DNA of 63,299 bases, counting the filler, from Folioceros fuciformis (taxonomy: Eukaryota), in assembly GCA_049999805.1 (NCBI GenBank). It is 16 parts of 16 records of this genome, joined end to end, with 100 filler letters (N's around TTAATTAATTAA, not from the genome) between each part and the next. Parts side by side here need not be neighbours in the genome. Positions count along the whole stretch, not along the records: positions 7,519 to 14,684 come from JBNGIO010005499.1; 15 more parts are not named here. The stretch is one strand, 5' to 3'. The translations under genes and the position numbers were made by a program. Below are positions 1,751-59,000 of this stretch, in pieces (the stretch's first letter is position 1; each line of letters opens with the position of its first letter). The notes beneath the pieces are model-generated. The model was given only the letters and a program-made list of their open reading frames with translations, was not told the origin of the DNA and searched no databases.

Positions 1751-3039
1751 GTAAGGAAAGGGACACCATACAAGGTCTCTTGAGTGTCCGAGACGAGAGG
1801 GTTGTGTGGTAGCCGGCAATAGAGCTGCCAGGTCTCACTCACTCTCCCTCCACTCATCAACACGTGAGCGTGCCTGTGCTTGGCTTTTCCCCTTCCCCAC
1901 GCTCTCTCTCTGCGTCTGTGACCAGTAGATATTCCTCCTCCATACATACTTGTGCGCGAGGAGTATTTTATCAAAGCACACCTACCTAGGTGTTGTGGAC
2001 TCACTGGGCCGCCCAGCATCGTGGTCACGACACAACACGGCACCACACCAAACCAAAGGCAAAACTTTTCTCAGCTGCTGCTTCCAACCCTCCTTCCAAT
2101 TCTGTCGCCCCTACCCCCTACTTGTTACAACACCACATGCACCAAAGATGCCTTNNNNNNNNNNNNNNNNNNNNNNNNNNNNNNNNNNNNNNNNNNNNNN
2201 NNNNNNNNNNNNNNNNNNNNNNNNNNNNNNNNNNNNNNNNNNNNNNNNNNNNNNCCTACTTGTTACAACACCACATGCACCAAAGATGCCTTTCTTTACA
2301 TGGAAGGCAGGTACAGTACAGCAGGTTTGTGGGCGCTAGGACCTTAGCTCAGCTTAGCTTAGCTCAGCAAGGTTCCTAGCCCAGTCCTCGTCACGACCCT
2401 TCCTTTGGACTCATCGGGGGGAACGCGGTTTGTCCGGATCAAGCGAGCAAGGGGCAAATTTCGTGAAATCATTTTGAATGAAAATTTGTATAAATAATAT
2501 ATATAGTTTTTATGTCGGTATTTGAGATTAAGAATGAGACAAAATATGTAATTACAGTTCGTAGTCTTAAAATGTGTATCTTAAGTTCAAAATGCAGTTA
2601 ATGCGTTACGAGGTTGCGGTGTTGGTTTGACTCAAAACCCGACAAGGGTACAAGAATAAATAGGTCAGCAAAGCAAAGTGGCCTTGTTAAGCATATGGTG
2701 AGAACCTGTGCTTGGGAACCTTACTCTAAGAGCTCGCGTCTTGTCTGCTTTGTTGCCGATGGACGCAAAGTGTTGCCCCGCCTCCTTGGTGCCCTGGGCA
2801 GTGTTGCCCAAGTCTTGTTCTCGACATGACATGTTCAAGACATGACATTAGGAATGAGACAAAATATGTATTTAAAGTTCGTGTAGGCGCCGGGGTTTGT
2901 GGATTTGGCAAACCGAACAGGGAACAGATGGTGAAGAAGGGCGTGTCCTGCTGCCATGCTCCCGGCTAATTGTTTCTCATCTCCGTGATCCTTCTCTTAT
3001 GGCGACAGGAAGGGAGGCACACATGGCGCACGTCTGAGA

Positions 3040-3154
3040 CCGAAAACTGAGACTTGGGTTCACAGGAGTGTGTCTGCACCAGAACTTCCAGAGCCTCAGC
3101 AGCCTCAGTGAGCAGGCCCTCATGACATAGCTTTCTCACAGTTTCAGCCATCAC
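3040..3154 (-). pseudogene. Possible PPR N-terminal remnant
   Basis: ETVRKLCHEGLLTEAAEALEVL resembles the lead helix of PLS-PPR proteins; no continuation seen. Confidence 0.3.
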
Positions 3155-3964
3155 AATCCTGCAGGCCTGAGATTGTCCCGACCGTCGGGCAAGCTAGATT
3201 TCGGCTTCGCGAACTCACGACCCATATCCACATCCCAAGCAGCAAGCTTCGACTTCACTCAGGCTGGCTTGTAGAGGTGGTGCAGCCAGAGCCCCTCATG
3301 GGATTCTCTGTGCCGGAAGTCAGGCAAACGCTTACTTTTCTTAGCATGCCTGTTATCCCACCACAGTGTTGGGTCCCGAAAGAATTGTCCCCACAAAAAA
3401 GCATGCTTCCCACTGTCCCCAATTTGTCACGCCTACCCACTTTCCGCACATGCGCACACGCCTCAAATTGCGCACTTCATGCTGCGTTGCTGATGATAAA
3501 CCGGATCACCCGGGTGTGGCGAAATGGCCAAATTGGCATTCCTGCGAATGAACAAGCAACCGATCAGATTCGACAGAAAATGTTGCCTCCAAGGATCACA
3601 ATGAAGATCCATCATAGAATACCTGGAGGGTGCTCAAGCGCAATACACACATGAGGCAACCCTGCAAGGGTTTAGGGTTGGGCCAGGAATTGCGTCATAC
3701 ATTTTGCAGGCTGAAACCTGGCCTTGGATGGAACACGATCACCGACTTCTCCGTTTTCAGCTTTATCTGCACCTGCTTCTTACAACGAAAACTAAGGATG
3801 CCGGAAGATCCCACCTCGCCTCCTGGCCCTCAAAGGCGACGTCTCATGATCATGTGCTTGCAGCCCTTCATGGAGGACTCGAATGGAACTATGCAGGGGA
3901 TAGAGAGCGCCATTTGAGGAAATACAGCAGAGAACGCGAACGTCGTTAACCAGACATGGCTACA

Positions 3965-7418: not shown

Positions 7419-7518
7419 NNNNNNNNNNNNNNNNNNNNNNNNNNNNNNNNNNNNNNNNNNNNTTAATTAATTAANNNNNNNNNNNNNNNNNNNNNNNNNN
7501 NNNNNNNNNNNNNNNNNN
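7419..7518. other. Artificial contig linker (N44-TTAATTAATTAA-N44), first of 15
   Basis: Same 100-nt six-frame-stop spacer also starts at 14685, 16032, 17837, 23963, 29513, 31819, 33017, 45760, 50065, 51711, 52869, 54849, 55961 and 61701. Confidence 0.98.
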
Positions 7519-9094
7519 AATGCCCTTTGACATTCTTCATCCCACTTCCATGTCTTCACCTTCTTCAAGAGATCAGTTAATGGGGCAGCAATTTTGGCAA
7601 ACATTGGTACAAATCTTCTGTACACGCTAGCCAATCCTAAAAACATACGCACTTCATGCACATTGCTTGGCGGTAGCCAACTCTGTATGGCTTTTACCTT
7701 ACCAGGATCCATCCTGATTCCATCAGCAGAGACAATGAATCCAAGGAAGTCTATTTCTTCCTTAACAAAGTCACACTTTGTTATAGCTAAGAACAAAGAA
7801 TTTGCCCTTAACCTTTCCAACACTTTCCTCAAGTGTTGGACATGCTCCTCTAAGGTNNNNNNNNNNNNNNNNNNNNNNNNNNNNNNNNNNNNNNNNNNNN
7901 NNNNNNNNNNNNNNNNNNNNNNNNNNNNNNNNNNNNNNNNNNNNNNNNNNNNNNNNATATACTATTCATGAGAGTCTGAAATGTGGCTGGTGCATTAGTG
8001 AGTCCAAATGGCATGACTAGAAATTCAAAAGATCCATACCTTGTCCTACAAGCAGTTTTGTATTCATGTCCTTCTGCGATGCGAATCTGGTAATAACCAG
8101 CCATCAAATCCAGTCTGGTAAAATACTTAGCACCTTTCAACCTGTCAAACATATCATCCATCCTTGGCAAAGGATAGGAATTTTTGACTGTTATCTGGTT
8201 GAGTGCTCTGTAATCCAAGCATAACCTTAATCCTCCATTCTTCTTTCGCGTAAACAATACTGGCGCACCAAATGGGGATTTTGAGACTCTAACATAGCCC
8301 TTGGCTAACAAGTTAGACATTTGTCTCTTCAATTCTTGAAGCTCATCTAGTGACAATCTATATGGCGCTCTTGATGGCGGTACACTTCCTGGCTTTAGAT
8401 CAATTTCATGATCTACAACTCTCCGTTGAGGTAAAGGAGGTAACTCAGTAGGCATCAAGTCTTTAAACTCATCTAAGACATCCTGTATCTCCTTTGGAAT
8501 CTTTGGTTGCTTCTGAGATCCCATCTCAAGACCATCTTCTAGTCCTTGCAACACCAACAAATAGAGTTCCTCTCCATTTTTGACACAACGCTTGAGCTCT
8601 TTCTTAGAGATGACTTCATCAATCTTGTGCCCAAGCTGATGCTCAAGGACTGCACAACTCACTTTGTGCTTTTCATCTCCTACGATCTGTATGGTGCGTG
8701 AGTCCACGTCTACACATACCTTATTGGCCTTCATCCATTCTAAGCCCAAGATGATTTCATGATCATCCATATCTACAACTGTGAAGCTTGCTTGTCCTGT
8801 CCAATTGCCTATCTGCAAAGGAACTTTTTCTAGCTGTCCTAAGAACTGCAGCTTTCCTTTTGCTTGTTTCACTGTACATGGCTCTGAAATACTAGCCCAT
8901 GTCAAACCAAGCTTACTTGCTCTGCCAGGAGAAATGAAATTATGTGTTGCTGCTAGATCAAGCAACATCTTCGCTTCTTCACGATTCACACATCCTTCTA
9001 TATACATAAGCTCTCCACCTGCCCTATGAATAATGCTGTCCTCAGCATCTTGAGAGTCACCACATGTAGCCTGTGCAACATGTGGCCAATCCCG
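7519..9094 (-). CDS. pol: Chromovirus pol (PR-RT), partial copy, in frame with gag
   Basis: [41 protein letters not shown]; the RT YxDD motif falls in the N gap. Confidence 0.9.
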
Positions 9095-10178
9095 TCATTT
9101 GGGATTTTCAGATCCGGATACTTCTGTAATCCTGAGTCTTTGGGGCTGTGGGTTGTCTTGAACAACATTCAAAGATTGTTGAGTATTGGGGCATTCATTC
9201 GCGTAATGTCCCGGCTCTCCACAAGCAAAACAAACTCCTTTCCGAGAACCCATTGTCACTGTTCTCTGAGGTCCGCGCCCCCTGCGCACTCCTTGATTTC
9301 TCCCACGGAAGCTCGCACTGGAGTTGCCTCTTGCAACTGTACTCCTTTCATTATCCTTGGGAGTCCCTCTTGCAACATTATTGGAAGAAACCCTAGTTTG
9401 CATATACCGTCCACGGGTATTACCTCGAAATCTTCTTAAGGAGTTGGATGTGTTGGAATGAAAGGTATCTGGGATAGCATCTGCTGCTGTTATGGCCTCT
9501 GCCAAGGTCATTGGACTATACAACTCAATTCTGTTAGCAGCCCAGTCCTGTCTGCTTTATATTATCAAGCAGCTGCCGGCTCAAGCGTAAAGCATTCGCA
9601 GGTTGGAACTGCTTCTTCAAGGCCTCTTTGAAAGATGCCCAGTCTGTGATGGTGTGTGCTCGATTTCCCTGGGCTACATTAGCACAATAACTTCGCCACC
9701 ACACCAAAGCATACCCTTTGAGAAAGTTGCCCACAGTTCCTAAGTAATGCTTAGGCTCCAGGCCAGATGAAGCAAGATAGCTTTCAATAGAGTAAATCCA
9801 GGAATCAATAGCTTGTAGATCCCTTACTCCCTCATACTTATCTGGCACGGTCAACTTCAGATTTGCCCTCGGAACTGCTTCGAAGATATGAAAAGGATCT
9901 TGATTGTCTTCCGCTTCCTCATTTTGTAGAGCTATAGGCTGTGGATCCTTCCTTGCCTTTTTCCCAGATGCTGTCAAATCTTGGAGAACTTCCGGCAATA
10001 TTTCGGGGAGAATTTGTCGTAAAGCGACCATCATCTGCGTCTTCCAATCTTCAGATTTGTCTCCGGATGGTCCTGCTGAGTCGGTAAGCGGCATCTCCTT
10101 GCCTTGATTTTCCTCGAGTTGTTGAGGCGGGGGATTAGGGGAAACCTCTCGTATTTGCATCCTCTGGCGCTTAGCCAT
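9095..10178 (-). CDS. gag: Chromovirus gag, frameshifted at ~9545, with CCHC knuckle
   Basis: Retrotransposon gag motifs PDKYEG, ALVWWR, WASFKEALKKQF; knuckle CFACGEPGHYANEC; ends ENPK-TGA. Confidence 0.88.
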
Positions 10179-10197
10179 CTTGGAGGAATAGACTATG

Positions 10198-10208
10198 CTC
10201 TGATACCA
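10198..10208 (-). promoter_or_regulatory. Primer-binding site (tRNA-iMet)
   Basis: Minus strand reads TGGTATCAGAG(C), ~20 nt upstream of the gag ATG. Confidence 0.9.
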
Positions 10209-10212
10209 ACTA

Positions 10213-10850
10213 AGTAACGCCCCCCTTCCTTACGCAGCGTAAAAGGAAGCAACGGCCTCGAATCTCGTCTAAACACTCCGCAGCGCTCCACTTGCAATTC
10301 ACTCACTCCCTCTCACACGACTCAGCACTAGGCTCCAAGTAGCCCGCCGTCCACTGACGACTCGCAGACCACCTCCTCTAGGTGCTGCTCTTTATTCCAG
10401 TTACTTACAAAAGAGTCTGGCGATCTACGCCCCACTGGCTACTGCCCTCGACTCTATCTAACAAGCTTGCTCTTCAAGCCCTCCACAGCTATGCCTCCAG
10501 GCTAGACTTCTCACTATCTGCCTCTTTGTGTATCAGTGTATCACCGTATCCTTAAGACCCTAACACTGGCCTATTTATACTCCACAGCTAAGCCACTGCT
10601 AAAACTGGGAATGATACACACCACTCATCCTAGAATACTAGTGGTCATTACAACTCCATCCTTCTTAGGAGGTTTTGCCTGGAACACACAATTTGTTTCC
10701 AAAGGCAGCAAGAAGGAGGTTTTGCCTGGAACACACAATTTGTTTCCAAAGGCAGCAAGAAGCATACTTGCTTCTTCATCAAGACAGCTCTAGATTTAGC
10801 TTTCACCTTTCTACTTTTAACTTTCACCTTATTTCACTTATGCCATTACT
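10213..10850 (-). repeat. Chromovirus LTR (~638 bp)
   Basis: Bounded by polypurine tract TGGGGAAGAG (10851-10860) and the PBS; TATAAATA at 10572-10579; AATAAA at 10391-10396; internal 47-bp tandem duplication at 10668-10762. Confidence 0.85.
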
Positions 10851-10880
10851 CTCTTCCCCACTAGGAAGATGTCATTGTCC

Positions 10881-13800
10881 TCAATGACCTGTAGTATAAC
10901 GTGAGATCATCCATGATCCTTGTTGCACATCTTGAAGTGAAACCCAGACAGGATCTGCAAAATCACGAAGTCTTACTAGATACTCTAGAACATTACCACG
11001 GACATAAGGCACTTCTCTTTCTGCTAGAAATTCAACAATCTCTTGCAGACTATGGTTATATTGAACCAGGATAACATAGTCTTTCCTGTTCATGTCGTCA
11101 TTCTCTTTCGAAATCACAAACGGTTTCAGCAAAGAGACATGAAACACATCATGAGAGAAGATCCAATTAGGCAGTTGTAGTTTGTAAGCCACATTCCCAA
11201 TGCGCTTTAGAACTACGAAAGGACCTCCATACTTAGACCTTAACTTTGGGGACAATCCTTGAGGTACTGGGAAGTGTTTCAACTTTACCCAAACCTTGTC
11301 ACCCACTTGAAATTCTGCCTCTTTCCTGTGCCTATCAGCAAACTTCTTTTGCCTGTCTTGAGCTTTGGCCAAAATCCTCTTAGCAATTTCATGCCTGGCG
11401 CTTAACTGCTCAATAAATTCACGTGGTTCTCTTGCTGCTGTCTCAAACACGTCAGCATTCAACATGGAAACTGCGTCCATTGCTTCGTTACCTGTCATCT
11501 GAAAAGGTGTATAGCCTGTGGAGCTATGTACAGTATTGTTATAACAAAACTCTGCATCCTCAAGATGATTACTCCAGTTCCTTTGGTCCATTTGTACATA
11601 GTGTCGTAAGTATTCCTCTTGGATTCTGTTTACTCTTTCTGTAGATCCATCTGTATCAGGATGATATGCTGTACTTAGACATAGTTGCACTCCCAAGCTC
11701 TTCATAAGCTGTTGCCAAATTTCCGCTGTGAATCTGGGATCTCTATCACTCACAATTTGCATAGGCAATCCATGTAACACATAGATGTGCTTCTTAAATA
11801 ATTGAGCAACTTCTAAAGCCTTCACTTGCTTCTTCGTGGGGATAAAGTGTGCTTGCTTGCTGAACCTATCAACAACTGTCATGATAGCTGTGTATCCATT
11901 ACTGGGTGGCAATGGCATAACAAAATCCATTGATATACTCTTCCAAGGCCCACTTGGAATAGGCAGGGGTTGCAACAAACCTCGTGGATTTGTCTGCTCT
12001 ACTTTATCCTGCTGACAGTCTACACAAGACTTCACATACTCTACAGTATGTTTGTACATTCCAGGCCAGTAAAACAGCTTCTTCAACTTCTCATAAGTTG
12101 TGTCAATTCCCCGATGACCAGCACTTAACACATCGTGACATTCTGCAAGCAACTTTTTTCTCAACTCTTGAGAATCAGGAATCACAATCCTGTTTTGCTT
12201 GAACATTAACAAGCCATTTCTAAGCTTAAACTTAGACCCCGGTTGCTCCATCTCGTTGATCCAATCTTGCACTAATGGATCGCGCAGGTAAGCCTCTTTA
12301 ATCTGCGTGTGAGTGTCCCTTGGCTCAATCACCATCCGCGTTGTAGCTAGTTTAGGATTCTTCAGCTTAAAAACAGACATTAAACTCAACTCCTGCTTGC
12401 GACTAAGAGCATCTGCCACGAGATTTTCCTTCCCTGGCTTGTACTTAATCTCCACATCATACATCGCTAGGAAATCTTGCCATCTTGCTTGTCTAGCATT
12501 TAGTCGCAGTTGATTAGAAAAGAAGCTTGTACTTACATTATCTGTGTACAGCACAAAAGATCTTCCGAGAAGATAGTGTCTCCAAATCTTGAGACAATTG
12601 ATGACGGCTGTCATCTCCTTCTCATATGTGGGGTATTTCCTCTCATGTTCATGCAACTTTCTTGATTCGTAAGCCACTGGCCTACCTTCTTGCATAAGCA
12701 CTCCTCCAATAGCTGTATCTGACGCATCAGTATACACTTCTATATATTTCTTTGGATCATAGATTGCTAGTACTGGGGTAGTGCTGAGTTTCAACTTGAG
12801 AAACTCGAATGCCCTTTGACATTCTTCATCCCACTTCCATGTCTTCACCTTCTTCAAGAGATCAGTTAATGGGGCAGCAATTTTGGCAAACATTGGTACA
12901 AATCTTCTGTACACGCTAGCCAATCCTAAAAACATACGCACTTCATGCACATTGCTTGGCGGTAGCCAACTCTGTATGGCTTTTACCTTACCAGGATCCA
13001 TCCTGATTCCATCAGCAGAGACAATGAATCCAAGGAAGTCTATTTCTTCCTTAACAAAGTCACACTTTGTTATAGCTAAGAACAAAGAATTTGCCCTTAA
13101 CCTTTCCAACACTTTCCTCAAGTGTTGGACATGCTCCTCTAAGGTNNNNNNNNNNNNNNNNNNNNNNNNNNNNNNNNNNNNNNNNNNNNNNNNNNNNNNN
13201 NNNNNNNNNNNNNNNNNNNNNNNNNNNNNNNNNNNNNNNNNNNNNTACTATTCATGAGAGTCTGAAATGTGGCTGGTGCATTAGTGAGTCCAAATGGCAT
13301 GACTAGAAATTCAAAAGATCCATACCTTGTCCTACAAGCAGTTTTGTATTCATGTCCTTCTGCGATGCGAATCTGGTAATAACCAGCCATCAAATCCAGT
13401 CTGGTAAAATACTTAGCACCTTTCAACCTGTCAAACATATCATCCATCCTTGGCAAAGGATAGGAATTTTTGACTGTTATCTGGTTGAGTGCTCTGTAAT
13501 CCAAGCATAACCTTAATCCTCCATTCTTCTTTCGCGTAAACAATACTGGCGCACCAAATGGGGATTTTGAGACTCTAACATAGCCCTTGGCTAACAAGTT
13601 AGACATTTGTCTCTTCAATTCTTGAAGCTCATCTAGTGACAATCTATATGGCGCTCTTGATGGCGGTACACTTCCTGGCTTTAGATCAATTTCATGATCT
13701 ACAACTCTCCGTTGAGGTAAAGGAGGTAACTCAGTAGGCATCAAGTCTTTAAACTCATCTAAGACATCCTGTATCTCCTTTGGAATCTTTGGTTGCTTCT

Positions 13801-14437
13801 GAGATCCCATCTCAAGACCATCTTCTAGTCCTTGCAACACCAACAAATAGAGTTCCTCTCCATTTTTGACACAACGCTTGAGCTCTTTCTTAGAGATGAC
13901 TTCATCAATCTTGTGCCCAAGCTGATGCTCAAGGACTGCACAACTCACTTTGTGCTTTTCATCTCCTACGATCTGTATGGTGCGTGAGTCCACGTCTACA
14001 CATACCTTATTGGCCTTCATCCATTCTAAGCCCAAGATGATTTCATGATCATCCATATCTACAACTGTGAAGCTTGCTTGTCCTGTCCAATTGCCTATCT
14101 GCAAAGGAACTTTTTCTAGCTGTCCTAAGAACTGCAGCTTTCCTTTTGCTTGTTTCACTGTACATGGCTCTGAAATACTAGCCCATGTCNNNNNNNNNNN
14201 NNNNNNNNNNNNNNNNNNNNNNNNNNNNNNNNNNNNNNNNNNNNNNNNNNNNNNNNNNNNNNNNNNNNNNNNNNNNNNNNNNNNNNNNNTTGCTGCTAGA
14301 TCAAGCAACATCTTCGCTTCTTCACGATTCACACATCCTTCTATATACATAAGCTCTCCACCTGCCCTATGAATAATGCTGTCCTCAGCATCTTGAGAGT
14401 CACCACATGTAGCCTGTGCAACATGTGGCCAATCCCG
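10881..14437 (-). CDS. pol: Chromovirus pol: PR-RT-RNase H-integrase-chromodomain (two N gaps)
   Basis: HHCC finger (CHD..GH...CVDC), D,D(35)E residues (SMDF, SDRD, TERVN), GPF motif, C-terminal chromodomain-like [22 protein letters not shown]; 746-aa stop-free stretch. Confidence 0.92.
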
Positions 14438-14859
14438 TCATTTGGGATTTTCAGATCCGGATACTTCTGTAATCCTGAGTCTTTGGGGCTGTGGGTTGTC
14501 TTGAACAACATTCAAAGATTGTTGAGTATTGGGGCATTCATTCGCGTAATGTCCCGGCTCTCCACAAGCAAAACAAACTCCTTTCCGAGAACCCATTGTC
14601 ACTGTTCTCTGAGGTCCGCGCCCCCTGCGCACTCCTTGATTTCTCCCACGGAAGCTCGCACTGGAGTTGCCTCTTGCAACTGTANNNNNNNNNNNNNNNN
14701 NNNNNNNNNNNNNNNNNNNNNNNNNNNNTTAATTAATTAANNNNNNNNNNNNNNNNNNNNNNNNNNNNNNNNNNNNNNNNNNNNAGTTGATCTTAACCAA
14801 TCTATTCAGATGTTGGGAGTAATACATTTAGTGCCTGTAATACATTTGTACACATCAAG

Positions 14860-16031: not shown

Positions 16032-16131
16032 NNNNNNNNNNNNNNNNNNNNNNNNNNNNNNNNNNNNNNNNNNNNTTAATTAATTAANNNNNNNNNNNNN
16101 NNNNNNNNNNNNNNNNNNNNNNNNNNNNNNN

Positions 16132-17795
16132 CCCTTGTTCAAGAGTTGTACGTGGATAGTCAAGTTCCAATTTTTGCCAGATTGCTTGAGTCCGTATATG
16201 CCCTTAATGAGTTTACATACTAAATGCTCCTTTCCTTTTACCTCATAACCCCCAGGTTGCTTCATGTATATTTCTTCTTTCAAGCGCCCATACAAGTATG
16301 TTGTCTTCACATCCATCATATGAAGTTCAAGATCATACTGGGCACACATAGCAAAAATCATACGAAGAGCAGCAAACTTAGCTACAGGAGCATAAGTGGC
16401 CCAAGGTATGTAGTCTAGTCCAGGGACTTGAGTAAAACCTCTAGCAACTAGACGTGCTTTATACCTTTCCACCGATCCATCTCCTTTTCTCTTTATCTTA
16501 AATACCCATTTGCTGGTTACTATTTTTCTACCCTTAGGAGGTTCAATTAATTTCCATGTAGAATTACTAATAAGGGAATTATACTCTGAGTCTACAGCTG
16601 CCTTCCGTAGATGTTTGGAGGGAGAGGAGAAGGCTTGTTTTAGGGTAAGAGGCTCTTCTAAGTCTACAGTGGCTGAATACACAGCTTGATTATAAAGAGA
16701 CTCAGGAAACTTAGAATCAAGAAAAATAGCAAGATATCCCAAAGGAGGTTCTTTCCAACTAGCAGGGCCGGAGATGAGTGGACGTGATCTAAGGTTGTAC
16801 CTTGGTGCAGGTGTATCTTCCACAGGAACTGGTTCATCTTCATGTTCTAAAGGGTCCATTTCTTCAACATCATTAGCTTCCAACTGATCATTGTCTTCTT
16901 GAACAGGAGGTATTGCATTTTCCGAAATGGCCTCAATGGGATCAAATGAATGTGGAAATTGCTCCTCCTCCTCCAGTGTGTCGGTGTCGGATGTGGGTGT
17001 GTCAGGACGCCGTTCAGGTCCTAATTCCTCCTCCTACATGACAGGTCCATCGAAGGGAAGTCGGAGAGCAGGATCAGGAAAATCCACAATATAGTCACTA
17101 GCATCAAAGGAAGAACATTCAGATTCTATATCTTTAGATGAAAGGTGAGAAGGCAAAACATCTCCTACTGAAGATGAAAATAGGGAATGTTCATGAAAAG
17201 TGACGCTGCGAGCATAGAGAAGTTTCTTAGTAGAAGGATCAAACAATTTATAACCCTTGATTCCTTCCGAATAACCAATAAAGGTATATTTTACGGCCTT
17301 TGGGTCGAACTTCCTTCTTAATGCCTTGGGGACAAATACATATGCCGGAGATCCAAAAATGCGGAGATGTTCTATGGAGGGCTTTCTGCCTATAAAGGCT
17401 TCATAAGGTGTCATATCTTGGACTGCTGAAGTGGGTAGTCGATTCATGAGATATGTGGCTGTGAGGAGTGCTTCGGCCCAATATACCTTAGGTAACTTTG
17501 CTTGGTTTAACAGGCAGCCAATAATCTCTTGAAGACGTAGATTCTTATTTTCAGCTACGTCATTTTGTTGCGGAGTATAAACAACAGTAAGTTGTTGAGC
17601 AATACCGCGAAGGCGACAAAAATCCGTAAATTGATTGGAAGTGAATTCGCCACCACTATCAGAACGTAAGGTTTTGAGTTTCTTCTCAGTTAACCTCTCA
17701 GCCCATACCATATAGTCCTGGAAGTAACGATAAACATCTCCTTTATGACTTAAGATATAAGTAAGGGTAAACCGAGAGTAGTCGTCGATGAAGGT
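16132..17795 (-). mobile_element. Ty1/copia pol fragment (integrase-RT), decayed
   Basis: LRSDSGGEF, YTPQQN, SKWVFKIK, YKARLVARGF, IYGLKQS. Confidence 0.92.
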
Positions 17796-17836
17796 TGTGG
17801 AGGCAAAACCCCGGGCACTGATTGCCGACGGGTTCC
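17796..17836. repeat. Terminus of high-copy LTR family 'TGTGGAGGCAAAACC' inserted in copia integrase
   Basis: Near-identical to sequence starting at 31711 and 47277 and to the reverse complement ending at 46151. Confidence 0.85.
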
Positions 17837-18608
17837 NNNNNNNNNNNNNNNNNNNNNNNNNNNNNNNNNNNNNNNNNNNNTTAATTAATTAANNNNNNNN
17901 NNNNNNNNNNNNNNNNNNNNNNNNNNNNNNNNNNNNATAAAAGAACCAATCTTGCACGCTACTCCTCGCTTCCGTCTCTGACACGTATCGACGGCGTCGA
18001 TCGTGCCTTGGCGCTTATGCAGCGCCTGCGCCGACTTCGGCGCATTTGCCAACTATGGCACATTTGCCAACTACAGCATCCTCGCCGCGGCAGCCGCGGC
18101 TTGGCCAGTGCCCTGGCCCACGACGCCTGTGCTTGGCCATGCCTCGGCGACACCCACGGACTGGCCGCGTCACGGCCATGCCTCAGCTGACGCCCCTGCG
18201 GCACACGGGTGGGGTGCCTGGGGCCCCCCCTGTGCGCCGGGCCTGGTGCCCCCTTGTCCGGGGCCTAGCTGCCCCCGACGGGCTGGCAGCACCTTGCAGC
18301 CGCAGAGGCCTGGTGGCACCCCGCCTGTGCCACAGCTCCCTAGCCTAGTGCCTGCGCCTGCCGGTGCCCCACGACCGTGCTCCTAGGCTCCTCGCTATGT
18401 GGCCCCCTTGGCGCCGGCGCCCGTGCCTTGTGGCACCCGAGCCTGTGAGCCTGGTGCGGATTGCGCCCGGGGCGGACACTCCTCCCGGCACCTTCATTTC
18501 CGGTGCCCTTCTTGTATGCCTTTCTTCATAGCCGCCTTACGCACCACCTCGTCCGTAGCAGCTAGTGCCCTCACCATCTTCCTCTACAACCCACGCTCTG
18601 ATACCAGT

Positions 18609-21900: not shown

Positions 21901-22135
21901 AAGCCTCCTCCTACTAAAAGAAATTAAGTCCATAAAGAGAGGAAGAAGAATTAGTGCATAAAAGCATTTTTAGAGAAGAGATATTTGCATGAGAAGAAAA
22001 CATAAAAGAGCGACAATATTAGAAGAAGCACAATCCATCTAGCAAGATGCTAGAGTGGAAAAATGTCTCCTAGATGCGCTCCTTAGATGCTTGAAGCTGC
22101 ACTTGCATAATAGAGAGCAAGAAGCTCTGATACCA
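18931..22135 (-). mobile_element. Decayed, internally deleted Ty1/copia internal region
   Basis: PBS 22124-22135; gag start EKDRFNGKNYYVW (21756-21556); abrupt jump to integrase C-terminus (21480); RT with YVDD; RNase H remnants with stops and frameshifts. Confidence 0.9.
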
Positions 22136-22424
22136 TGATGAAAATCTAGCCTTGCTCTTAGATGCAAATCTTAGAATGTAATAGAATATTATGAAGTAAA
22201 GTACAAGCCTTTATATAGGCTAGGTGGTTGAGGTGGTTGGGCGGTTACAACTATAAGTTGTTGTAACTGAAAGTAGTTGAAACTATAAGTAGTTGCAACC
22301 ATAAGTAGTTGCAACTACTAACTACCTAGATTTACTATAAAGTAATTAGTTAACGTCCTTGACGTGAATAACCCAAAATCTACAACCCTAATGAATAGTG
22401 CCCTAAACTAGTTATATTTTATCA
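22136..22424 (-). repeat. Copia 5' LTR
   Basis: TGATGAAAAT...ATTTTATCA imperfect terminal inverted repeat, adjacent PBS, TATA-like motif near 22211; abuts gypsy RT. Confidence 0.75.
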
Positions 22425-23962
22425 CTCCTATCGTGGTAGTGTCCAAGAAACAGCCGGGGAAGGTCAGGGTCTACTAGGACTTCCGTAAACTGAATGAGGC
22501 CACCAAGAAGGATCACCACCCTTTGCCCTTCTTGGACAATGTGTTGGATACCGTAGCGGGCCACGAGATGTACAGCTTCCTGGACGGGTATTCTGGCTAC
22601 AATCAGATTTCTCTGCGAAAAGAAGATCAGGAGAAGACCACCATCACGACAGATTGGGGAACCTTTGCGTACTCTAAGCTTCCTTTCGGTCTCTGCAATG
22701 CCCCCGCGATCTTTCAGAGAGTGGTGAATACCATTTTCAAGGACTTGCTCCGAAAGATCATGGAAGTCTTCTTAGATGACTTTTGCGTATCTGGGAAGCG
22801 AGAACTGCACCTGGATCACCTACGGAAGTGTTTGCAGAGGTGCCGGGAAACAAATCTCAAGCTCCACCCTGGCAAGTGCTACTTCGGGATGACGGAAGGC
22901 ATCCTGCTGGCTCATCGAGTGTCAGCACAAGAACTACAGGTGGACCACGAGAAGGTCAAAGTAATCGCTGAGATGGACGCCCCGCAAAACGTGAGACAGG
23001 TGCGCGCCTTTGCCGGTTTGGTAGGGTACTACCGCCGCTTCGTCTGCAACTTTGCCAAGAAGGCTGCTCCTCTTACCCAGCTCACCAAGAAAGACGTCCC
23101 TTTTGAGTGGACCACTGAGAGGCAAGCAGCATTCCAAGAATTGAAGGCAGGCCTGGTTCAGGCACCAACGCTACAACCTTCGAACTGGGAGAAGACGTTC
23201 CACGTGGACATGGATGTGTTCGCTTACGCCATCGGCACTGTTCTCAGCCAGCGGGACGCACAAAGTCGCAACCATCCCATCTTTTACGCTAGCAGGCAGC
23301 TGGCTAATGCAAAACGAAATTATTCAACGACCGAACGAGAAGCGTTGGGCATCATCTATGCCTACAAGAAATTCCGACATTACCTCTTGGCATGCAAGGC
23401 AATGTTCCATGTGGATCACTTTGCATTGAAATACTTGGTCAACAAGCCGGACCTTTCGGGAAGAATCGCCAGGTGGGTCCTACTCCTCCAGGAATACGAC
23501 TTCGAAGTGGAAACTCGAGCGGGGAAGAAACATGTCAACGCAGACTTCCTTTCAAGACTTAAGACGAGCGGAAGGGTGCGAGATACGGATGACCGTTTCC
23601 CTGACGAAGAACTAGTGGCATTGATCAACGACGAGAACAAACCTACTCAGGTGGGTCCTCAAGGGAGTTTGACAGAAGTACCCAATGTTGAGGCTTGCGG
23701 AGAATCACCATCTCAAGGAGGGGTGCAAGCCACTGTGATCGGAGATCCCCCGACCGCCCATCGACACCAGGGAAGAAGTCGCGGAGCCACCCGTGCACGA
23801 CGACGCACCCGGGAGGAACGAATTGGCCGTTCGGGAACCGGGCCGCCCACCTATCAAGAAGTTCGTCAATTCCTGGCCCATGGGGTTATTCCCATCGACC
23901 TGAGCAGGGAAGGGTGAGCCGTTTTTCTACATAAGGTAGGACCCTATTGCCTGAAGCACGAG
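22425..23962 (+). mobile_element. Non-chromovirus gypsy (Athila-like) RT-RNase H fragment
   Basis: PIVVV..K, FLDGYSGYNQI, PFGLCNAP, FLDD, YASRQL..RNYSTTERE, RIARWVLLLQEY. Confidence 0.92.
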
Positions 23963-25800: not shown

Positions 25801-26380
25801 CTCCTTCATTTACGAACGAGTTGCAGTCGATGCTGCACCAAATTCTACGACATGTGGGCCTCTGGAGGCATGTGCAATTGTAAGTGTCCCAGCCATTGAA
25901 ATTGGGATGCAGCCTCATGCCTAGAACGCAAAACGAGGTCTTCAAGCCGACCAGTATGTCACCCAGGATTTTGTCCTAAGGTGTTTGGAGATACTTTCGT
26001 AGGTGGGATTAGTAACAACCACATTTTAATCTGCCATGTAGTGAAAAGTTCAAAAGTGTACCAAGTTTTTACTTTTAGTTTTCGAGTTTGCTTGTCTCTT
26101 GATCGAGGAACAGATCAAGTTTTGTCTATATATGTGTGGTTAGACCCTTCAATTGTAGTAAGTCTGAGAATTTGTTTGTGTTTCTCTTCAAAACCTTGGT
26201 ATATATGCTTCTCTCTTTGTTGAGGAATACATTCATTTTTGTCTACGTGTAATTTGACCATACATTGAAAATGTTTTGAGCCTTTTATGTAACTCACGTA
26301 GCTAAGTTTTGTACCTTTGGTTTTCTCGGTCTTGATCCTTTCAACATCTTTGGAGGCACAACTTTACAGTTCATATCGCT

Positions 26381-29128
26381 ATGGAAAAGGAAGGGAAAGG
26401 GAAAGGAAGTGGTAACATGGAGGAGGAAATACATCCGATTCAAGTGTTTTGCGAAGATGTAGTTTCCATGAAATCTCATCCTACGATTTTGGGAATTATA
26501 CAGCAGACCTTTGGACATTCAAATTCAGACCTGTATTATTGTAGCGATGATGAGGAAGAAGAAACTAGTATGCAAGCAATAGTGTTGTGGATGAACTTGA
26601 ACAAGACCATAGTGGATCCGCACCATCTGCTTTTTGTGGACTTGAACAAGACCATAGCGGATCCACACCATCTCCATCTTGTGGATAGAACTGTAAGGCA
26701 TAACCAAGTAGTAGCACTTGCACTAGACCCATTAGGGCAAACAGGCGTTGTGACAAACGTTATGATTTTAGTGGATTTGGAGCTTACAAATGGTATACTC
26801 ATGAAGGCTATGGATAGCAAGTGCTTGAAGAGAATCATCTCATTTCAAGTGGAAGACTTTGTCATTGGTGCTGGATGGTTGGGAAAAGTAGACGCAGTGA
26901 TAAAGCTTGTGACATTGGTGTTCAGCAATGGAGCAAAGTGCCAACTGAAGCTTACAAACCCTTACGACCTAGAATGTGAGAATATGGCAGAGGATAATAT
27001 GTCATTATTTATTGGTCAAAAAGTTGTGGCACATGATGATAACACTCTGCAAAAGGCAACTTGGTTGGTTGGCAACTACGATAAGCGAAGAACAAAATGT
27101 GGAACAATTTCACAAATTGATGCCGACATGGTTATTGTTGAATGGGTTGCTACTTATGGTAATACACCTAGGATTTTGAGGAAGCCTAGAAAGCAACAAA
27201 AGCCAAAAGACTTGATTGTCATGAACCAATTTTTGCACACAGATTGGCATCTAGGTGATCGATGCTTTTTGCATGAGCATGTTGAACATTGCCAAAACAA
27301 CAAACCTATTGTTGTGAAGTCCAGTTATGAAGACGTTTATAGCACAAGTGAAAACAAGACACAAAGATCAAAAGGATGGCAGCCACATATAGAATCTACA
27401 CCAAAACACAAAAGGGAAGAGGAAGAAGTTGTTACTCAAGGCTGCCACAAAGTGGTTGGCATCAAAACCACAGTTGATGTGCTTTGGCAAGATGGAACAA
27501 CCAGCAAAGATGTGAACTCTTGCGAGCTTGTTCCCATTGATGAGTTAAGAGAGCATAGTTTTCAGCCAAGGCAATGTGTCACTCTTAAAGATATTGATGA
27601 GGATGATTATGTAAACATTGTCCAACATGGGGTTGGCATTATACAATGGGTGGATTTCAAGCAACGTGTTGCTAGTGTAAGGTGGTTGGGATCTTTTCTA
27701 CATGGAGATGCAACATTCAAAGAGGAAGTTGTTAGTGTGTTTGAGCTTTGCAGGCATGCTGAATATAACATAAGAGATGCTGTCATTCGGCACCCACAGG
27801 ACAATAATATTCCAAATTTGAAATATGCAAATACATGGTTTGGTTGTATTTCTGGGCAGTTGTCTAAAAATGGAGATGTTGAAGTTACATGGATGGATGG
27901 CTCTACCTCACAGGTGGCAATGAGTGAAGTACATATAGCCATTAAACATGATGATCAATCCTTATTAGAACATGAGTCAAGCCCTTCGGGTGAGAGCCAT
28001 GATCTTAGCCATTCTAGTACTCATGAATCGGGTGAGGTTGATTGTGCTGATATAAACAACAACGATGAACATGTTCCTACTCAACCTGGGATCAATGAAT
28101 TGAAACCCACCTGTCACGAAGAAGCAAAGTGGGATGACCAATTTCAAGATACATTGCAAGGACGACCCCTTACAGATTTGCAAGATCTGTTGCAAAGACC
28201 ACCCCGTACAGAAATTGCTCTTGGACCAAGTATACCTGAAGATGAGAACAAACCTAATATGTTTTCATGTGTTGAACTAGAAGCCCTAACAATCCAAGAG
28301 AGACAAAGAGGAGAGCCTTTTAAAAAGTTTGATATACTGAATGATGCAAGCAACCATCATTTCTTCTCAAATATTAATGATGTTGGCATTCAAAGAAAGT
28401 GGATGAAGCGAGTCCAACATGAGTGGGACCTCCTTGTGAAAAATCTTCCAGACACAATCTACGTGCGTGTATATGAAGAACGGATGGATCTTCTATCGGT
28501 GGCCCTCATTGGGACAGATGGTACCCCATATCATGATGGGCTATATTTTTTTGATATTTATCTTCCACCAGAGTATCCTGATAGCCCGCCTCAAGCACAT
28601 TACTACTCTAAAGGTTTGCGGATTAATCCAAATCTTTATGAAAATGGTAAGGTATGTCTTAGCTTGCTAAACACATGGCATGGGGAGGAGTCAGAAGCTT
28701 GGAATCCAATTGTATCTACCATTATGCAAGTTTTACTTTCAATCCAAAGTCTTGTGCTAACTGAGAAGCCCTTTTATAATGAGCCCGACTTTAATCATCA
28801 ACAAAACACAAATGAAGGAGCAAAAAATTCTGAAGAATACAATGAGAATTGTTTTCTTTTATGCTGCAGGTCCATGTTGTTTTTGATGCGAAATCCTCCC
28901 TCACATTTTGAACAATTAGTCAATGAGCACTTCAAGAAAGTAGGGACAAAAATTGTGGTAGCATGTAATGCTTATTTAGAGGGAGTTAGAATAGGCTTTG
29001 AACCTAACACTTTAGCATCTTCTAGTAATGATATGCTAGAGGCAAATACATGTGGGTCCTTGGGCTTCAAGTTATCGCTAGCAAAACTTGTGCCCAAGTT
29101 AGAAGCAGCTTTTGAGAAACTTCTATGA
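26381..29128 (+). CDS. UBE2O-type E2/E3 hybrid ubiquitin-conjugating enzyme (UBC23/UBC24-PHO2 family), 915 aa, single exon
   Basis: GWLGKV, TTVDVLWQDG, EVTWMDG; UBC domain IYVRVYEERMDLL...GTPYHDGLYFFD...NPNLYENGKVCLSLLNTW (catalytic Cys intact), PFYNEP. Confidence 0.95.
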   Translation: MEKEGKGKGSGNMEEEIHPIQVFCEDVVSMKSHPTILGIIQQTFGHSNSDLYYCSDDEEEETSMQAIVLWMNLNKTIVDPHHLLFVDLNKTIADPHHLHLVDRTVRHNQVVALALDPLGQTGVVTNVMILVDLELTNGILMKAMDSKCLKRIISFQVEDFVIGAGWLGKVDAVIKLVTLVFSNGAKCQLKLTNPYDLECENMAEDNMSLFIGQKVVAHDDNTLQKATWLVGNYDKRRTKCGTISQIDADMVIVEWVATYGNTPRILRKPRKQQKPKDLIVMNQFLHTDWHLGDRCFLHEHVEHCQNNKPIVVKSSYEDVYSTSENKTQRSKGWQPHIESTPKHKREEEEVVTQGCHKVVGIKTTVDVLWQDGTTSKDVNSCELVPIDELREHSFQPRQCVTLKDIDEDDYVNIVQHGVGIIQWVDFKQRVASVRWLGSFLHGDATFKEEVVSVFELCRHAEYNIRDAVIRHPQDNNIPNLKYANTWFGCISGQLSKNGDVEVTWMDGSTSQVAMSEVHIAIKHDDQSLLEHESSPSGESHDLSHSSTHESGEVDCADINNNDEHVPTQPGINELKPTCHEEAKWDDQFQDTLQGRPLTDLQDLLQRPPRTEIALGPSIPEDENKPNMFSCVELEALTIQERQRGEPFKKFDILNDASNHHFFSNINDVGIQRKWMKRVQHEWDLLVKNLPDTIYVRVYEERMDLLSVALIGTDGTPYHDGLYFFDIYLPPEYPDSPPQAHYYSKGLRINPNLYENGKVCLSLLNTWHGEESEAWNPIVSTIMQVLLSIQSLVLTEKPFYNEPDFNHQQNTNEGAKNSEEYNENCFLLCCRSMLFLMRNPPSHFEQLVNEHFKKVGTKIVVACNAYLEGVRIGFEPNTLASSSNDMLEANTCGSLGFKLSLAKLVPKLEAAFEKLL

Positions 29129-47814: not shown

Positions 47815-49987
47815 TGTAAACTTTCCTAATGTGTAGAAAGAGCGGAAGCATGAATTAGAAAAGAATTAAGAAGTACATAGGTTGGGGGGCCTTTTATAGG
47901 GGACCCGGGCACCCCTCTGTAGGGGTGCGACTGTTCGATTAACGAGCTAGGTTAGCCTAACTCACCTGACTACTAGCTAGGGTTATGTAACTCTTACTAA
48001 ACTTAACACTCCCTCTTAAGGATAACATAACCTAGGCTAACGCTCCCTCTGCCGAGGGAGCAACTTCTAGTCTTCAGTTGTTGGTGAGGTAGGGGGCGAA
48101 GTCGACTGTGAGGGTGAGATAGTATATAGCGCCACCAAGGGAGGGAGTCTGAATCTTCCCGGAGATATCGACATGAACTAAGGCCAGTACGGCCTCAGCC
48201 CTATGCGCCCCCTTCGGGAAGGGAGACTCCTTCTGCTTGGCGAGGACACAGGATTCACAGACTGACAGATGTTGGAAACATCTAGGGAGTGGCTCTTGGT
48301 AAAGACCCTGTGAGGACATGGATATGAGCTTATGCTTGTTGATGTGACCTAGCCTGGCGTGCCACAGGGCAGCCAGGTCCTCGGGTGACTGGCCAGCGAC
48401 GTAAGCAAGAGGTCCTTGTTTGCTATTAAGAGTAAGTCTGTACAAACCATCGTGGGGGATGGCTCCCGTTAGGCATAGATCAGGACTATCTGGTCTGTAA
48501 AAGCAGCAGGAGTCACGGGAAAAGTTGACTTCTAGTGAACTATGCCGCAGTAACTGGCTAAGGGATACAAGGTTCTTGCCCATCTGTGGCACATAAAGTA
48601 CTGGTTCTAAGGTTAGGATAGAACCATTGGACAAAGGCAAATCACAGGTCCCTTGTCCAAGGATGGGTAAGCTTGACTTATTCTATTCGTCGCCGAGGAG
48701 GACCCTCTCTCTAATGGGACGCTGGTCCAGCTGGGAGAAGAGGGTAGCGTCGTTGCAGATATGGGCGGTGGCACCACTATCCAGGTACCACCCTTGATCC
48801 TGCTGTGGCTGGGTGCTAAGGCAAACGGTGAGGATCTTCACTATCTTGGTGTCTTCAGTCTTGCCCTTGACTGCCACATTTGCGGTCTGGCGGAGGCCAG
48901 GCTTTTGCGGCTCCCCGACTTTCTTCTTTCGGCATTCTCGCGCCCAGTGGCCGGGAGTGCCGCACCAGTTGCAGTTGCCCGTCCGGCGAGGTGGGGCAGA
49001 GGTCGAGGTGCCCTTGGAGGTGTTGCCTTGCTTCCCATTCGCCTTCCCGGGCCGGAGACGAGCAGCAAGCGCCTTATCAGCCTTGGGCTTGGATCCGCCT
49101 GCTGAAGTAAGGCGACTCTGCTCGTGTTGGTAAAGCACTTCGATATTTTCTTCCACTGTGAGGGAGGAGGTGGGGCCAGTAGCACCACACGTTGACATCA
49201 ACATCAAACTGGTGACGAAATGTTGATAGGAGTGGGGAAGGCTCATCAAAAGCTGGGCAGCAGCGTCCGTCTCAGTTAGGGTTGAGCCGAGGGATGCTAG
49301 CTGTCCTCGAAGTTGCCAAAATCTTGTAGTGTGGGCGGCCACAGTGTCGGACTCCCTCATCTTGAGTGCATTGAACTCCTGCCTGACGCTGTAGAGAGTC
49401 AAGACGTTGTTGACGTTGTACGTGTTAGCGAGCTGGTTCCAGATGGTGGAGGCCTCGGTGAGGAACTCGATACTGGGAACCAGGCTTGAGTCCAAGCCGC
49501 TGATGATGAGGGCGATGGCGATCCCGTTGAGGATGTCCCACCGATCGATGTCGGCCGCAGAGGGAGCGGGGGTAGAGGTCGGTGACGGCTTGGGGTGGCT
49601 GCCGTCCAAGACCTTCCATACACCTCTGCCGGTGAGCAAAGACTTCATCCGGACGCGCCATACTGGATAACGCTGTCCATTGAAGCGGTCTTGCTCCTTG
49701 ATTTGCTCAGTGAATGCTGGGATGGCGCCTACGGAGCTGCTGGTGGCCATCGTGGTTGTTGTATTCAAAGATAGTGAGTTCAATTGCTGGATGATTTGGT
49801 CCAGGTGAGTGTTGGCGCCTGAGGTCATAAAAGCCAGGCTTCAGGGTTGAGGCTGGTCACTTTTTTTTTTTTTTTTTTAGAGAGTATGTACGAAAGGAGG
49901 AGAATACAACCACGAGAGTCCAAGCAAACAGTCTGAAGTTCGGTGGGCAGGGAACTTCAGGTCTGCCGCGCTCCGGCTCTGATACCA
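47815..49987 (-). mobile_element. Internally deleted copia element: PBS-gag-PR-pre-integrase-PPT-LTR, lacking RT/RNase H
   Basis: PBS 49976-49987; gag 49828-48683 (CNWCGTPGHWAREC, WYLDSGAT); LWHARLGH...CESC to 48074; PPT CTTAAGAGGGAG 48009-48020; TG...CA segment 47815-48008 with TATAAAA. Confidence 0.85.
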
Positions 49988-56060: not shown

Positions 56061-59000
56061 GAGCTATGGCAGAAATAGTGTGACCTGTATGAGAAGCAAA
56101 GTGCGGCTTCTCAGGTGTATTGGTTGAAACAGCTAGTGGACTTGAAGATGAAGGAAGGGATGAGGATGTTCGATCATATGAATGAGTTCAATACCATTTT
56201 CAGCTAGCTCTCATTGCAAGGTATCTCGTTCCCAGATTCCGTGAGAGCTATGTTTCTGTTGCTCACATTACCAAAGAGTTGGGACACCTTTTGTATAGCT
56301 CTGAGTAATTCCGCTCCTGCCAGTGGTCTTACAGTTGTAAATGTAGAAGGTAGCCTGTTAACAGAGGAGGTAAACAGGAAGAATATGGAACCTTCAAAAG
56401 GTTCTAATGCCCTCATGGTGAGAAGAAGGTTCACTTCAAAGGGGAAGTACAAGGAGCGAAGTCGTTCCCGTAGTAAGTCTCGTAGTCGTAACAATGTTGA
56501 GTGTTACCATTGTCACAAGAAGGAACACATCAAAAGGGACTGCGAGAAGTTCAAGAAGGACAAAAACAAGGAGAAGAAGCAGAGCGACAATAAGGAAAGT
56601 TCGAGTGTCAAGCGTGACAAGGTGAATTCTATTGATGATGGAGATGTTCTTACCTCTTCTTGCTTCAATTCTGCACAATTGATAGCCGTGGAGAGTCACT
56701 TATTCTCTAATTGGATAATTGACTCTGGAGCATCTTTCCATGTTACTCCGCATAGGGAGTGGTTTAGCACTTATGATGCTACTAGGAAAGGATGTGTTCG
56801 GCTTGGAAATAACTACGTGTGCGAGATTGCAGGCGTTGGTGATGTGTAGTTGAAGTTCGACAACGGATCTTCATACATACTGAAGGATGTTAGGCATGTT
56901 CCTAAGTTGACAAAAAGCATGATTAGCGCAGGGCAGTTGGATGACGCTGGCTACCATTGTTGGTTTGGAGATCATTCTTGGAAGATCTCCAAAGGTTCTC
57001 TTGTGTTAGCTCGTGGATCGAAGTGTGGCACTTTGTACTCACTTCAGGTAACCACTATCAAGGATCATGTGATTTGTGTAACGGAACAACCAAGTGTTTC
57101 CTTATGGCATAGTCGGTTCGGACATATGTCTCAAAAAGGAATGAAGATCCTATCTTGTTTTGGTTACGTCCCTGCTTTTGACTTCTCCGATTTCTCCGTG
57201 TGTGAGCACCGTTTGTATGGGAAACAGACGAAGTCACCACATGGAGCAAGAGGTAAACACAAAAGTAAACCTCTTGAATTGGTTCACAGTGACGTTTGTG
57301 GACCTATTGCCCACTGTATCGTTAGGCGGTGCATCCTATTTTGTCACTTTCATTGACGACTTCTCACGCAAGGTGTGGGTTTATCCTTTGAGGAAAAAGG
57401 ATGATATTCTGACAGTGTTTCAGAAATTCATCACCCTTATGCAGAATGAGTCTAGCCTCTGGCTGAACTGTCTGAGGACAGACAATGGGGGAGAGTATGT
57501 CTCAAAGGCTTTTCAATCATTTTGTGATTCCAAGGGAATCAAGAGAGAATTGACTGCGCCGTATACTCCTCCCCAAAATGGTGTGGCTGAACAGATGAAC
57601 AGGACCATCTAGGAGAGGATGCGTAGTTTGTTGTCAAACTCTGTATTGCCTAACGGATTTTGGGCAAAAGCAGTGGTTACGGCAGTGCATCTTATTAACA
57701 GATCTCCTAATAGGGCTGTGAATGAACAGGTTCTAGAGGAGATGTAGTCTGGAAAGAAGCCGTCATACAAGCATCTACGAGTGTTTGGCTGCAAGGCATA
57801 CTACCATGTTCCGAAGGAGTTTCGGGACAAGTTGGCACCCAAGTCCAAGAAATGTCTTTTTCTTGGCTATGGTGAATCTGGTGAGATGGGATACCGTCTA
57901 TGGTATCCAGAAGCCAAGAGGATGGTTCGCAGCAATGACGTGTTCTTCAATGAAACCAAGATGCACAAGAAGCCTACGCCAACAGTGGAGGTGCGATGGG
58001 TGGTCTTCCAAGAAGATGGATTTGACCGTCCAGCGCAGGTTGAACGTCGTGATGTGCAGGAACAAGTTCCTCCACTGGTACAAGAGGAGAGAGTGCAACC
58101 AGCTCCGGTCGAGGCGCTAGTGCTTCGTAGGTCAAGAAGGATTTCACGTTCTCCTGACAAGTATGTTGCATCTCTTGATTATGTCATGCTGAAGGATTGT
58201 GGGGAGCCCTCTTGTTATCAAGAGGCCATGTCAGTGACTGACAAGGACAAGTGGGAGAAGGCGATGCAGTCGCAGATGGATTCGCTCCATAACAACCAAA
58301 CTTGGGAGTTGGTTCAGTTGCCTAAGGGCAAGAAGGCGATGCCATGCAAATGGGTGTATAAGATGAAGGACATACCCCATTATGGCAAACCCAAGTCCAA
58401 GGCACGATTGGTTGCAAAGGGTTTTAAGCAACAGCAAGGTATTGACTTTGATGAGATTTTCTCACCGGTTGTCAAAATGACCACTTTGCGATGTGTTCTT
58501 GATCTAGTTGCGAGGCACGACATGGAACTTATCCAAATGGATGTGAAGTCGGCATTTCTGCATGGTGATTTCTAAGAAGAGGTATACATGCAGCAACCAG
58601 AGGGTTTCATTGAGAAAGGCAAAGAGAATCTGGTGTGCAGGTTAAAGAAGAGCCTTTATGGTTTGAAACAGGCACCTAGGGAGTGGTATTTCAAGTTCCA
58701 CTCATTTATGATTTCTCAAGGCTACAAGCGTAGCGATGAGGATCATTGCCTCTATACGAAGCAAGCTAAGGATGCAAGCTTGCTCATTCTGGTCCTCTAT
58801 GTGGATAATATGCTAATTGTTGGGACTAACAGTGATGAGATTTCAGCGTTGAAGTCAAAGTTGAATGGTCGCTTTGACATGACAGACTTGGGAGAGGCAA
58901 GCTATATTCTTGGCATGCATATTCGTCGAGACAGATAGAAGCGTTTGCTGTACTTGTCTCAGACTGAATACATTAACAAGGTGCTTCAACGTTTCAATAT

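Follow-up and report, generated by a model that had tools for sequence, protein, structure and literature searches.

A candidate stop-codon readthrough signal was found at the gag/pol boundary of a Ty3/gypsy long terminal repeat (LTR) retrotransposon of Folioceros fuciformis (GenBank assembly GCA_049999805.1). The element lies on the minus strand of record JBNGIO010005499.1, which occupies positions 7519-14684 of the 63,299-nucleotide (nt) stretch of DNA analysed here, hereafter called the window. Its gag ends in AAA (9100-9098) followed by TGA (9097-9095), and pol continues onward in the same frame. The combination of UGA-CGG, an 8-nt spacer and a strong hairpin at this boundary, which an earlier sequence-only reading of the same DNA had likened to viral readthrough signals, does match the published layout of type II viral sites (PMC3159437). 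Programmed UGA readthrough is in our judgement the best explanation of this arrangement and probably the correct one. The wider proposal, that a Ty3/gypsy family of the green-lineage chromovirus lineage sets its Gag:Pol ratio with a virgavirus/alphavirus cassette (A-UGA-CGG, 8-nt spacer, stem), we regard as evenly balanced between true and false.

The gag/pol junction

The cassette comprises the following features, the last of which lies just outside its main hairpin.

9098..9100, minus strand: last gag sense codon, AAA, which places an A at position -1 of the stop and fits the 'xxA' of xxA-stop-CGx-xxx-xxG
9095..9097, minus strand: in-frame TGA between gag and pol, read from the sequence
9087..9094, minus strand: 8-nt spacer CGGGATTG, read from the sequence, whose first codon CGG (9094-9092) creates the UGA-CGG context
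9059..9086, minus strand: hairpin in the predicted fold, whose 9 base pairs (bp; 8 Watson-Crick and one G-U) are followed by a U/U internal loop and by two G-C pairs that close the loop ACAG
9032..9049, minus strand: second, smaller hairpin of 7 bp with a 4-nt loop, just downstream of the first (prediction only)

The 5' side of the main hairpin runs from the arm GCCACATGT (9086-9078) through a U (9077) and GC (9076-9075) into the loop ACAG (9074-9071), and the 3' side returns through GC (9070-9069) and a U (9068) to the arm ACATGTGGT (9067-9059), the internal loop being a 1x1 U/U. The anatomy given in the sequence-only reading, namely AAA-TGA, the 8-nt spacer, the hairpin at 9086-9059 and the open pol frame, proved exact to the base.

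The stop and its flanks, AAA-TGA-CGG-GAT-TGG, fit the consensus xxA-stop-CGx-xxx-xxG exactly. This consensus is reported as invariant in 35 virgavirus replicase readthrough sites, which carry an 8-nt spacer before the stem (Firth et al. 2011, PMC3159437). Type II signals, in which UGA is followed by CGG or CUA, are described for the replicases of tobra-, peclu-, furo- and pomoviruses, the furovirus coat protein extension, alphaviruses and coltiviruses (Beier and Grimm classes; PMC3159437). Both of their hallmarks are found here: TGA at 9097-9095 is directly followed by CGG at 9094-9092, and where type II sites have a stem of about 10-12 bp beginning 7-12 nt past the stop, the Folioceros site has a compact hairpin of 9 + 2 bp after 8 nt. 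An Rfam search of 8800-9300 returned nothing close to the gathering score.

The coding regions on either side of the stop are as follows.

9095..10178, minus strand: gag, with its ATG at 10178, a Retrotrans_gag domain and a frame break at 9549/9550 in the assembly (Pfam and open reading frame (ORF) reading)
9191..9232, minus strand: CCHC zinc knuckle of gag, 31 codons upstream of the stop (PF00098)
7960..9094, minus strand: pol part 1 (linker, protease and N-terminal reverse transcriptase (RT)), 378 open codons up to an N gap (ORF reading and Pfam)
8681..9010, minus strand: protease domain, with its catalytic motif D-L-A-A at 8959-8951 (Pfam and alignment with relatives)
10881..13145, minus strand: pol part 2 (C-terminal RT, RNase H, integrase, SH3-like domain and a degenerate chromodomain-like tail), 754 codons (Pfam and ORF reading)

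Across both sides of the N gap pol is free of stops (378 + 754 codons), and the earliest AUG in the pol frame stands at 9007, within the protease domain, with none upstream of it. The junction thus shows what is expected of readthrough in an LTR retroelement, that is, a single in-frame stop at the gag/pol boundary, an otherwise open pol and no upstream AUG belonging to pol itself. Since pol terminates in TGA as well (10883-10881), TGA is an ordinary stop in this element, and an altered genetic code is therefore ruled out.

Position, context and fold compared with chance

One alternative is that the TGA is an accidental nonsense mutation, most simply an arginine codon changed by a CpG transition. 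It would have arisen in a master copy which no longer produced a Pol of its own and was multiplied in trans by the proteins of other elements, and the hairpin and the flanking context would be coincidental. We consider this a serious rival, though an unlikely one. Against it stands first the position of the stop: no other stop accompanies the 1499 visible sense codons of the element, and the TGA interrupts the 58-codon linker that joins the CCHC knuckle to the protease, a segment holding 2.8 % of all one-step nonsense paths and 6.4 % of the transition paths. Calculated from base composition, the chance of finding the four fixed flanking bases at a given position is 0.0035. Elsewhere in the element, 9 CGA codons are intact.

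The fold downstream of the stop is likewise exceptional for this element. Along the 5.2 kb of its sense strand, the hairpin that begins 8 nt after the stop ranks first of 5124 windows of 32 nt by fold stability and second of 5108 windows of 40 nt, the other top 40-nt window lying in the LTR. Folding of a 61-nt segment gave -21.9 kcal/mol and z = -2.95, only 1 of 200 shuffled sequences being as stable.

Other interrupted ORF pairs in the window served as controls, among them three Ty1/copia fragments that each contain one in-frame TAG with no hairpin after it:

16080-17888, minus strand: Ty1/copia fragment, negative control
48074-49840, minus strand: Ty1/copia fragment, negative control
56208-57356, plus strand: Ty1/copia fragment, negative control

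All five other in-frame stops between ORF pairs are TAG and none has the features of the cassette; the best 32-nt folds downstream of them reach 0 to -8.7 kcal/mol, compared with -15.9 kcal/mol at the cassette. Two of the three Ty1/copia stops fall in the protease beta-barrel and the third between integrase and RT. For a random nonsense mutation, the joint occurrence of this position, context and structure by chance is very unlikely.

Assembly layout and copies in the sequencing runs

As a pseudomolecule, the window strings small unrelated scaffolds together through 15 linkers, each consisting of 44 N, the six-frame-stop sequence TTAATTAATTAA and another 44 N, at 7419-7518, 14685-14784 and 13 further places. 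The parts on either side of a linker are not physically linked, and ORF pairs that abut at one are therefore artefacts. The focal scaffold (7519-14684) is made up of one 5189-nt contig (7957-13145) and three shorter ones (338, 944 and 395 nt), all of them 100 % identical to parts of the 5189-nt contig; it is one collapsed LTR-plus-internal cycle laid out about 1.4 times. The shortest but one of these contigs carries a second cassette.

14402..14443, minus strand: duplicate of the cassette on the 395-nt contig, 100 % identical to 8947-9341 (self-alignment; 23-mer at 14421-14443)

Because this is the same contig placed twice, the second site provides no independent evidence, and the caution of the sequence-only reading that its two copies might be one collapsed sequence was justified by their complete identity on a single scaffold. 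In the duplicated copy, a contig ends exactly at the site of the protease motif.

Three sequencing runs cover the stretch, two of them DNA runs of one sample and the third from a second sample and study, all of which were compared as contigs; in run X7 the cassette is not covered. None of the runs is recorded as RNA, and X3 is RNA only by conjecture. The summed word depth in the cassette bin is 477 and 314 for the two DNA runs, compared with 7.7-13.9 for single diverged contigs. The cassette depth is thus about 20-60 times that of a single copy, which suggests that nearly identical copies number some tens. The cassette site is covered by diverged contigs (about 88 % identical) as well. The LTR reaches depths of about 1900-3900 in the DNA runs, compared with about 155-690 for the internal region, and many contigs leave the LTR at both ends, which suggests many insertion sites and solo LTRs.

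These data bear on a further explanation, to which we give very little credence, namely that errors in sequencing or assembling a collapsed repeat produced the stop or the hairpin. It could draw on the pseudomolecule with its 15 linkers, on the focal scaffold repeating its own contigs, and on six internal sites (9008, 9175, 9294, 9630, 10087 and 10140) at which the window is contradicted by nearly all depth of both DNA runs. However, none of the 40 differences listed of a total of 517, and no listed indel, falls in 9059-9100, and the contig from the second, independent sample, which spans 9002-9257, differs from the window only at 9008 and 9175 and so has the TGA and the hairpin in common with it. 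These data show the cassette to be more than an error peculiar to the assembly. As regards fixation of the stop, the high-depth contigs of one sample and the one contig of the second sample agree with the window; these copies are near-identical and so have almost no power on the question of selection.

Proposed mechanism and competing explanations

In the mechanism proposed here, most ribosomes would stop at the UGA and release Gag, while a few percent would decode it with a near-cognate tRNA and continue into pol to give a Gag-Pol fusion. Three features would make the stop leaky: an A immediately upstream, CGG immediately downstream and a stable hairpin that starts after 8 nt. With the stop in the A site, this hairpin would be positioned at the mRNA channel entrance. 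We infer readthrough, its efficiency and the dependence of the family on it from the anatomy, the motif match and the non-random placement of stop and hairpin.

Several observations weigh against this proposal, most of them in favour of an accidental mutation. C>T and G>A changes predominate among the differences between copies and the TGA is followed by CGG, so that a change from CGA to TGA at a CpG would be an easy accident. Single accidental stops are also present in other elements of the window. The nearest relatives that span the junction (37-43 % identical) all have one uninterrupted ORF, and the hairpin is compact, whereas the viral stems are extended with large loops (PMC3159437). The evidence is drawn entirely from one collapsed contig and from near-identical contigs of the runs, with no independent diverged copy among them, and such copies are too alike for their open frames to prove selection. 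A rare coincidence can moreover surface when very many windows are scanned.

Two apparent defects of the element point in the same direction. The protease motif reads D-L-A-A, compared with D-T/S-G-A/S in all six aligned relatives and four further ones; the D-T/S-G motif looked for in an autonomous element is thus absent at 8959-8951, and the assembled sequence may encode no active protease. Should D-L-A be family-wide, the family could not be autonomous, which would weaken the argument that selection keeps the stop. In the 177 positions around this motif, a contig from the second sample shows 6 differences from the window. The other defect is a change of frame in gag at 9549/9550 of the assembly. 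The run contigs do not support this break: contigs of three runs stop or diverge exactly at 9549 and continue as gag-like sequence, and the break is probably a local deletion or misjoin, not a feature of the family.

A further alternative accepts the stop as real and fixed and lets Pol be made by another route, be it an internal promoter, internal initiation or reinitiation, or a spliced RNA, with the hairpin serving that route or RNA packaging. There is precedent for such routes. The gag-UGA-pol junction of Tca2, a Candida albicans LTR retrotransposon, drove no readthrough by itself in a Saccharomyces cerevisiae reporter and held a minor promoter (PMC2194720), and plant Ogre elements splice between their ORFs (PMC6317226). 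The inactivity of the Tca2 junction despite its anatomy also counts against programmed readthrough here, as a warning against reading a mechanism from anatomy. For the Folioceros element, however, the pol frame offers no AUG ahead of the protease domain, and flanking bases and spacer specifically match the known readthrough motif (PMC3159437). Among the 15 joints listed of 54, none is of a kind that would skip the stop; the only one listed across it, from 9024 to 9806, is a single low-depth DNA contig in each run. We therefore hold an alternative route to Pol to be improbable.

Comparison with known readthrough systems

The closest likeness is to the type II viral signals, with which the Folioceros cassette, as known from its sequence and predicted fold, shares UGA-CGG, the exact fit of the flanking motif, the 8-nt spacer and a stem of about 10 bp. 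It differs from them in being part of an LTR retrotransposon RNA and in its compact 28-nt hairpin, the viral signals residing in RNA genomes with an extended stem that closes a loop of about 100 nt or more (PMC3159437).

Within the chromoviruses, the fission-yeast elements Tj1, Tosmo1-3 and Tcry1 are reported to use readthrough of an in-frame TGA between gag and pol, with the conserved 8 nt GAA-TGA-CT, and Tj1 no longer transposes once the in-frame TGA that ends its gag is removed (PMC10085805 and PMC4600332 for the former, PMC4600332 for the latter). These elements resemble the Folioceros element in their chromovirus lineage, in an in-frame TGA followed by C at the gag/pol boundary and in a pol without its own AUG. 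Unlike it, they have GAA-TGA-CT in place of AAA-TGA-CGG, the accessible parts of the two papers mention no 3' hairpin for them, and they are self-priming Tf1/sushi elements without a CCHC knuckle, whereas the Folioceros element has a tRNA-type primer-binding site and a CCHC knuckle (PMC10085805, PMC4600332).

Among other LTR-bearing elements, murine leukaemia virus (MuLV), a gammaretrovirus and a classical case of gag-pol readthrough, also has gag and pol separated by an in-frame stop, with an RNA structure after a spacer of 8 nt, but its stop is UAG and its structure a compact pseudoknot, in contrast to UGA-CGG and a simple predicted hairpin here (PMC3159437, PMC5009743). Tca2 is likewise an LTR retrotransposon with a UGA between gag and pol and a predicted 3' structure; it belongs, however, to the Ty1/copia superfamily, and its predicted structure is a pseudoknot (PMC2194720).

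The virus-like interpretation put forward in the sequence-only reading is thus upheld by the cassette, its context, its layout and the chance statistics, but its suggestion of novelty, made for Galadriel-type elements, was overstated, as gag-pol TGA readthrough was already known from the fission-yeast chromoviruses (PMC10085805, PMC4600332). Its statement that plant chromoviruses mostly have one ORF also stands in part: elements of the plant cluster usually do (PMC10085805), whereas some plant groups have two ORFs (Neumann et al. 2019, PMC6317226). More generally, Gag and Pol are reported to share a single ORF in most plant LTR retrotransposons (PMC6317226, PMC10085805), which raises the question of how these elements come by an excess of Gag. 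For plant elements only +1-frame cases had been reported as of 2003 (review PMC5009743), and we found no case of readthrough in a plant Ty3/gypsy element in the searchable literature; the survey of ORFs by lineage that accompanies PMC6317226 may hold prior cases. The recoding strategy and the type of signal are both known; their combination in a chromovirus lineage of the green lineage appears to be new to the searchable literature.

If the proposal is true, the cassette would be the first of its kind among the LTR retrotransposons of the green-lineage chromovirus lineage, and would speak either for convergence on a universal eukaryotic readthrough signal or for an exchange of signals between RNA viruses and retrotransposons of the same hosts. 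At about 45 nt the signal would be compact enough for reporter assays and would offer a natural case for comparing retrotransposon and RNA-virus readthrough signals in related hosts. For annotation pipelines it would be a warning that a lone in-frame TGA at a gag/pol boundary should not be scored as decay.

The host element and its relatives

In the Ty3/gypsy LTR retrotransposon that carries the cassette, gag is followed by protease, RT, RNase H and integrase. Pfam places Retrotrans_gag, the CCHC knuckle, a retroviral-type protease, RT, RNase H, the zinc and core domains of integrase and a Tf2-type SH3 domain one after the other, which is the order GAG-PR-RT-RH-INT (gag, protease, RT, RNase H, integrase) of chromoviruses. 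Its non-coding features are as follows.

10214..10850, minus strand: LTR of about 640 bp with approximate ends; a purine tract (10851-10860) precedes it and the primer-binding site follows it, and contigs diverge at 10850 and 10221
10197..10208, minus strand: primer-binding site TGGTATCAGAGC (sequence motif), which we take to match the 3' end of initiator tRNA-Met

Three more exact minus-strand copies of TGGTATCAGAGC occur in the window at 18595-18606, 22124-22135 and 49976-49987, and presumably belong to other LTR retrotransposons on other scaffolds.

No Pfam chromodomain was detected in the element even at E-values up to 10. Its last 56 residues align weakly (E-value 0.013, 27-29 % identity) with the C-termini of the database proteins P0099 and P0100, both of which are marked with PF00385, and most of the closest full-length relatives carry PF00385 too. 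In view of these two observations, assignment to the chromovirus lineage seems a reasonable label, while the narrower name 'Galadriel-type' used in the sequence-only reading is a tentative one.

Searches of proteins, metagenomes and viral contigs revealed no relative with more than about 45 % identity across the junction, and the viral contigs contained no relative. The best matches overall, at about 40-48 % identity, come from angiosperms, a liverwort, green and streptophyte algae and metagenome proteins. A search for longer proteins gave 3148 matches (best 35-55 % identical), and an exhaustive search of representative proteins gave 107201, the best junction-spanning ones being the single-ORF relatives mentioned above. 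Among near-length proteins, neither a 200-residue junction query (76 candidates) nor a query with the gag N-terminus (193 candidates) had a significant match. Within the window, tblastn returned only the duplicate contigs and, at 22418-23557, an unrelated RT fragment of 38-40 % identity. One protein, P0079, aligned a Q at the position of the stop; at 40 % overall identity this is a weak local resemblance, and it was not used. At the position of the protease motif, the unrelated database protein P0111 reads D-D-A-A.

The metagenome scan yielded 37 loci (L001-L037), whose best segments are 29-59 % identical to the element. Eleven of them, at 29-37 % identity, have a CCHC knuckle in the pol frame; six of these contain stops between knuckle and protease, at varying places, and five contain none. 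Most of the eleven have several to dozens of other in-frame stops, as in decaying copies, and as a group they are uninformative on the Folioceros element family.

Other features of the window

The only evident host gene seen in the window is an uninterrupted 930-codon ORF on the plus strand (26336-29128), which encodes UBE2O-type SH3 domains and a ubiquitin-conjugating domain and lies on a different scaffold from the element. A short tandem-repeat block at 6827-7064 matches itself at several offsets with 80-91 % identity.

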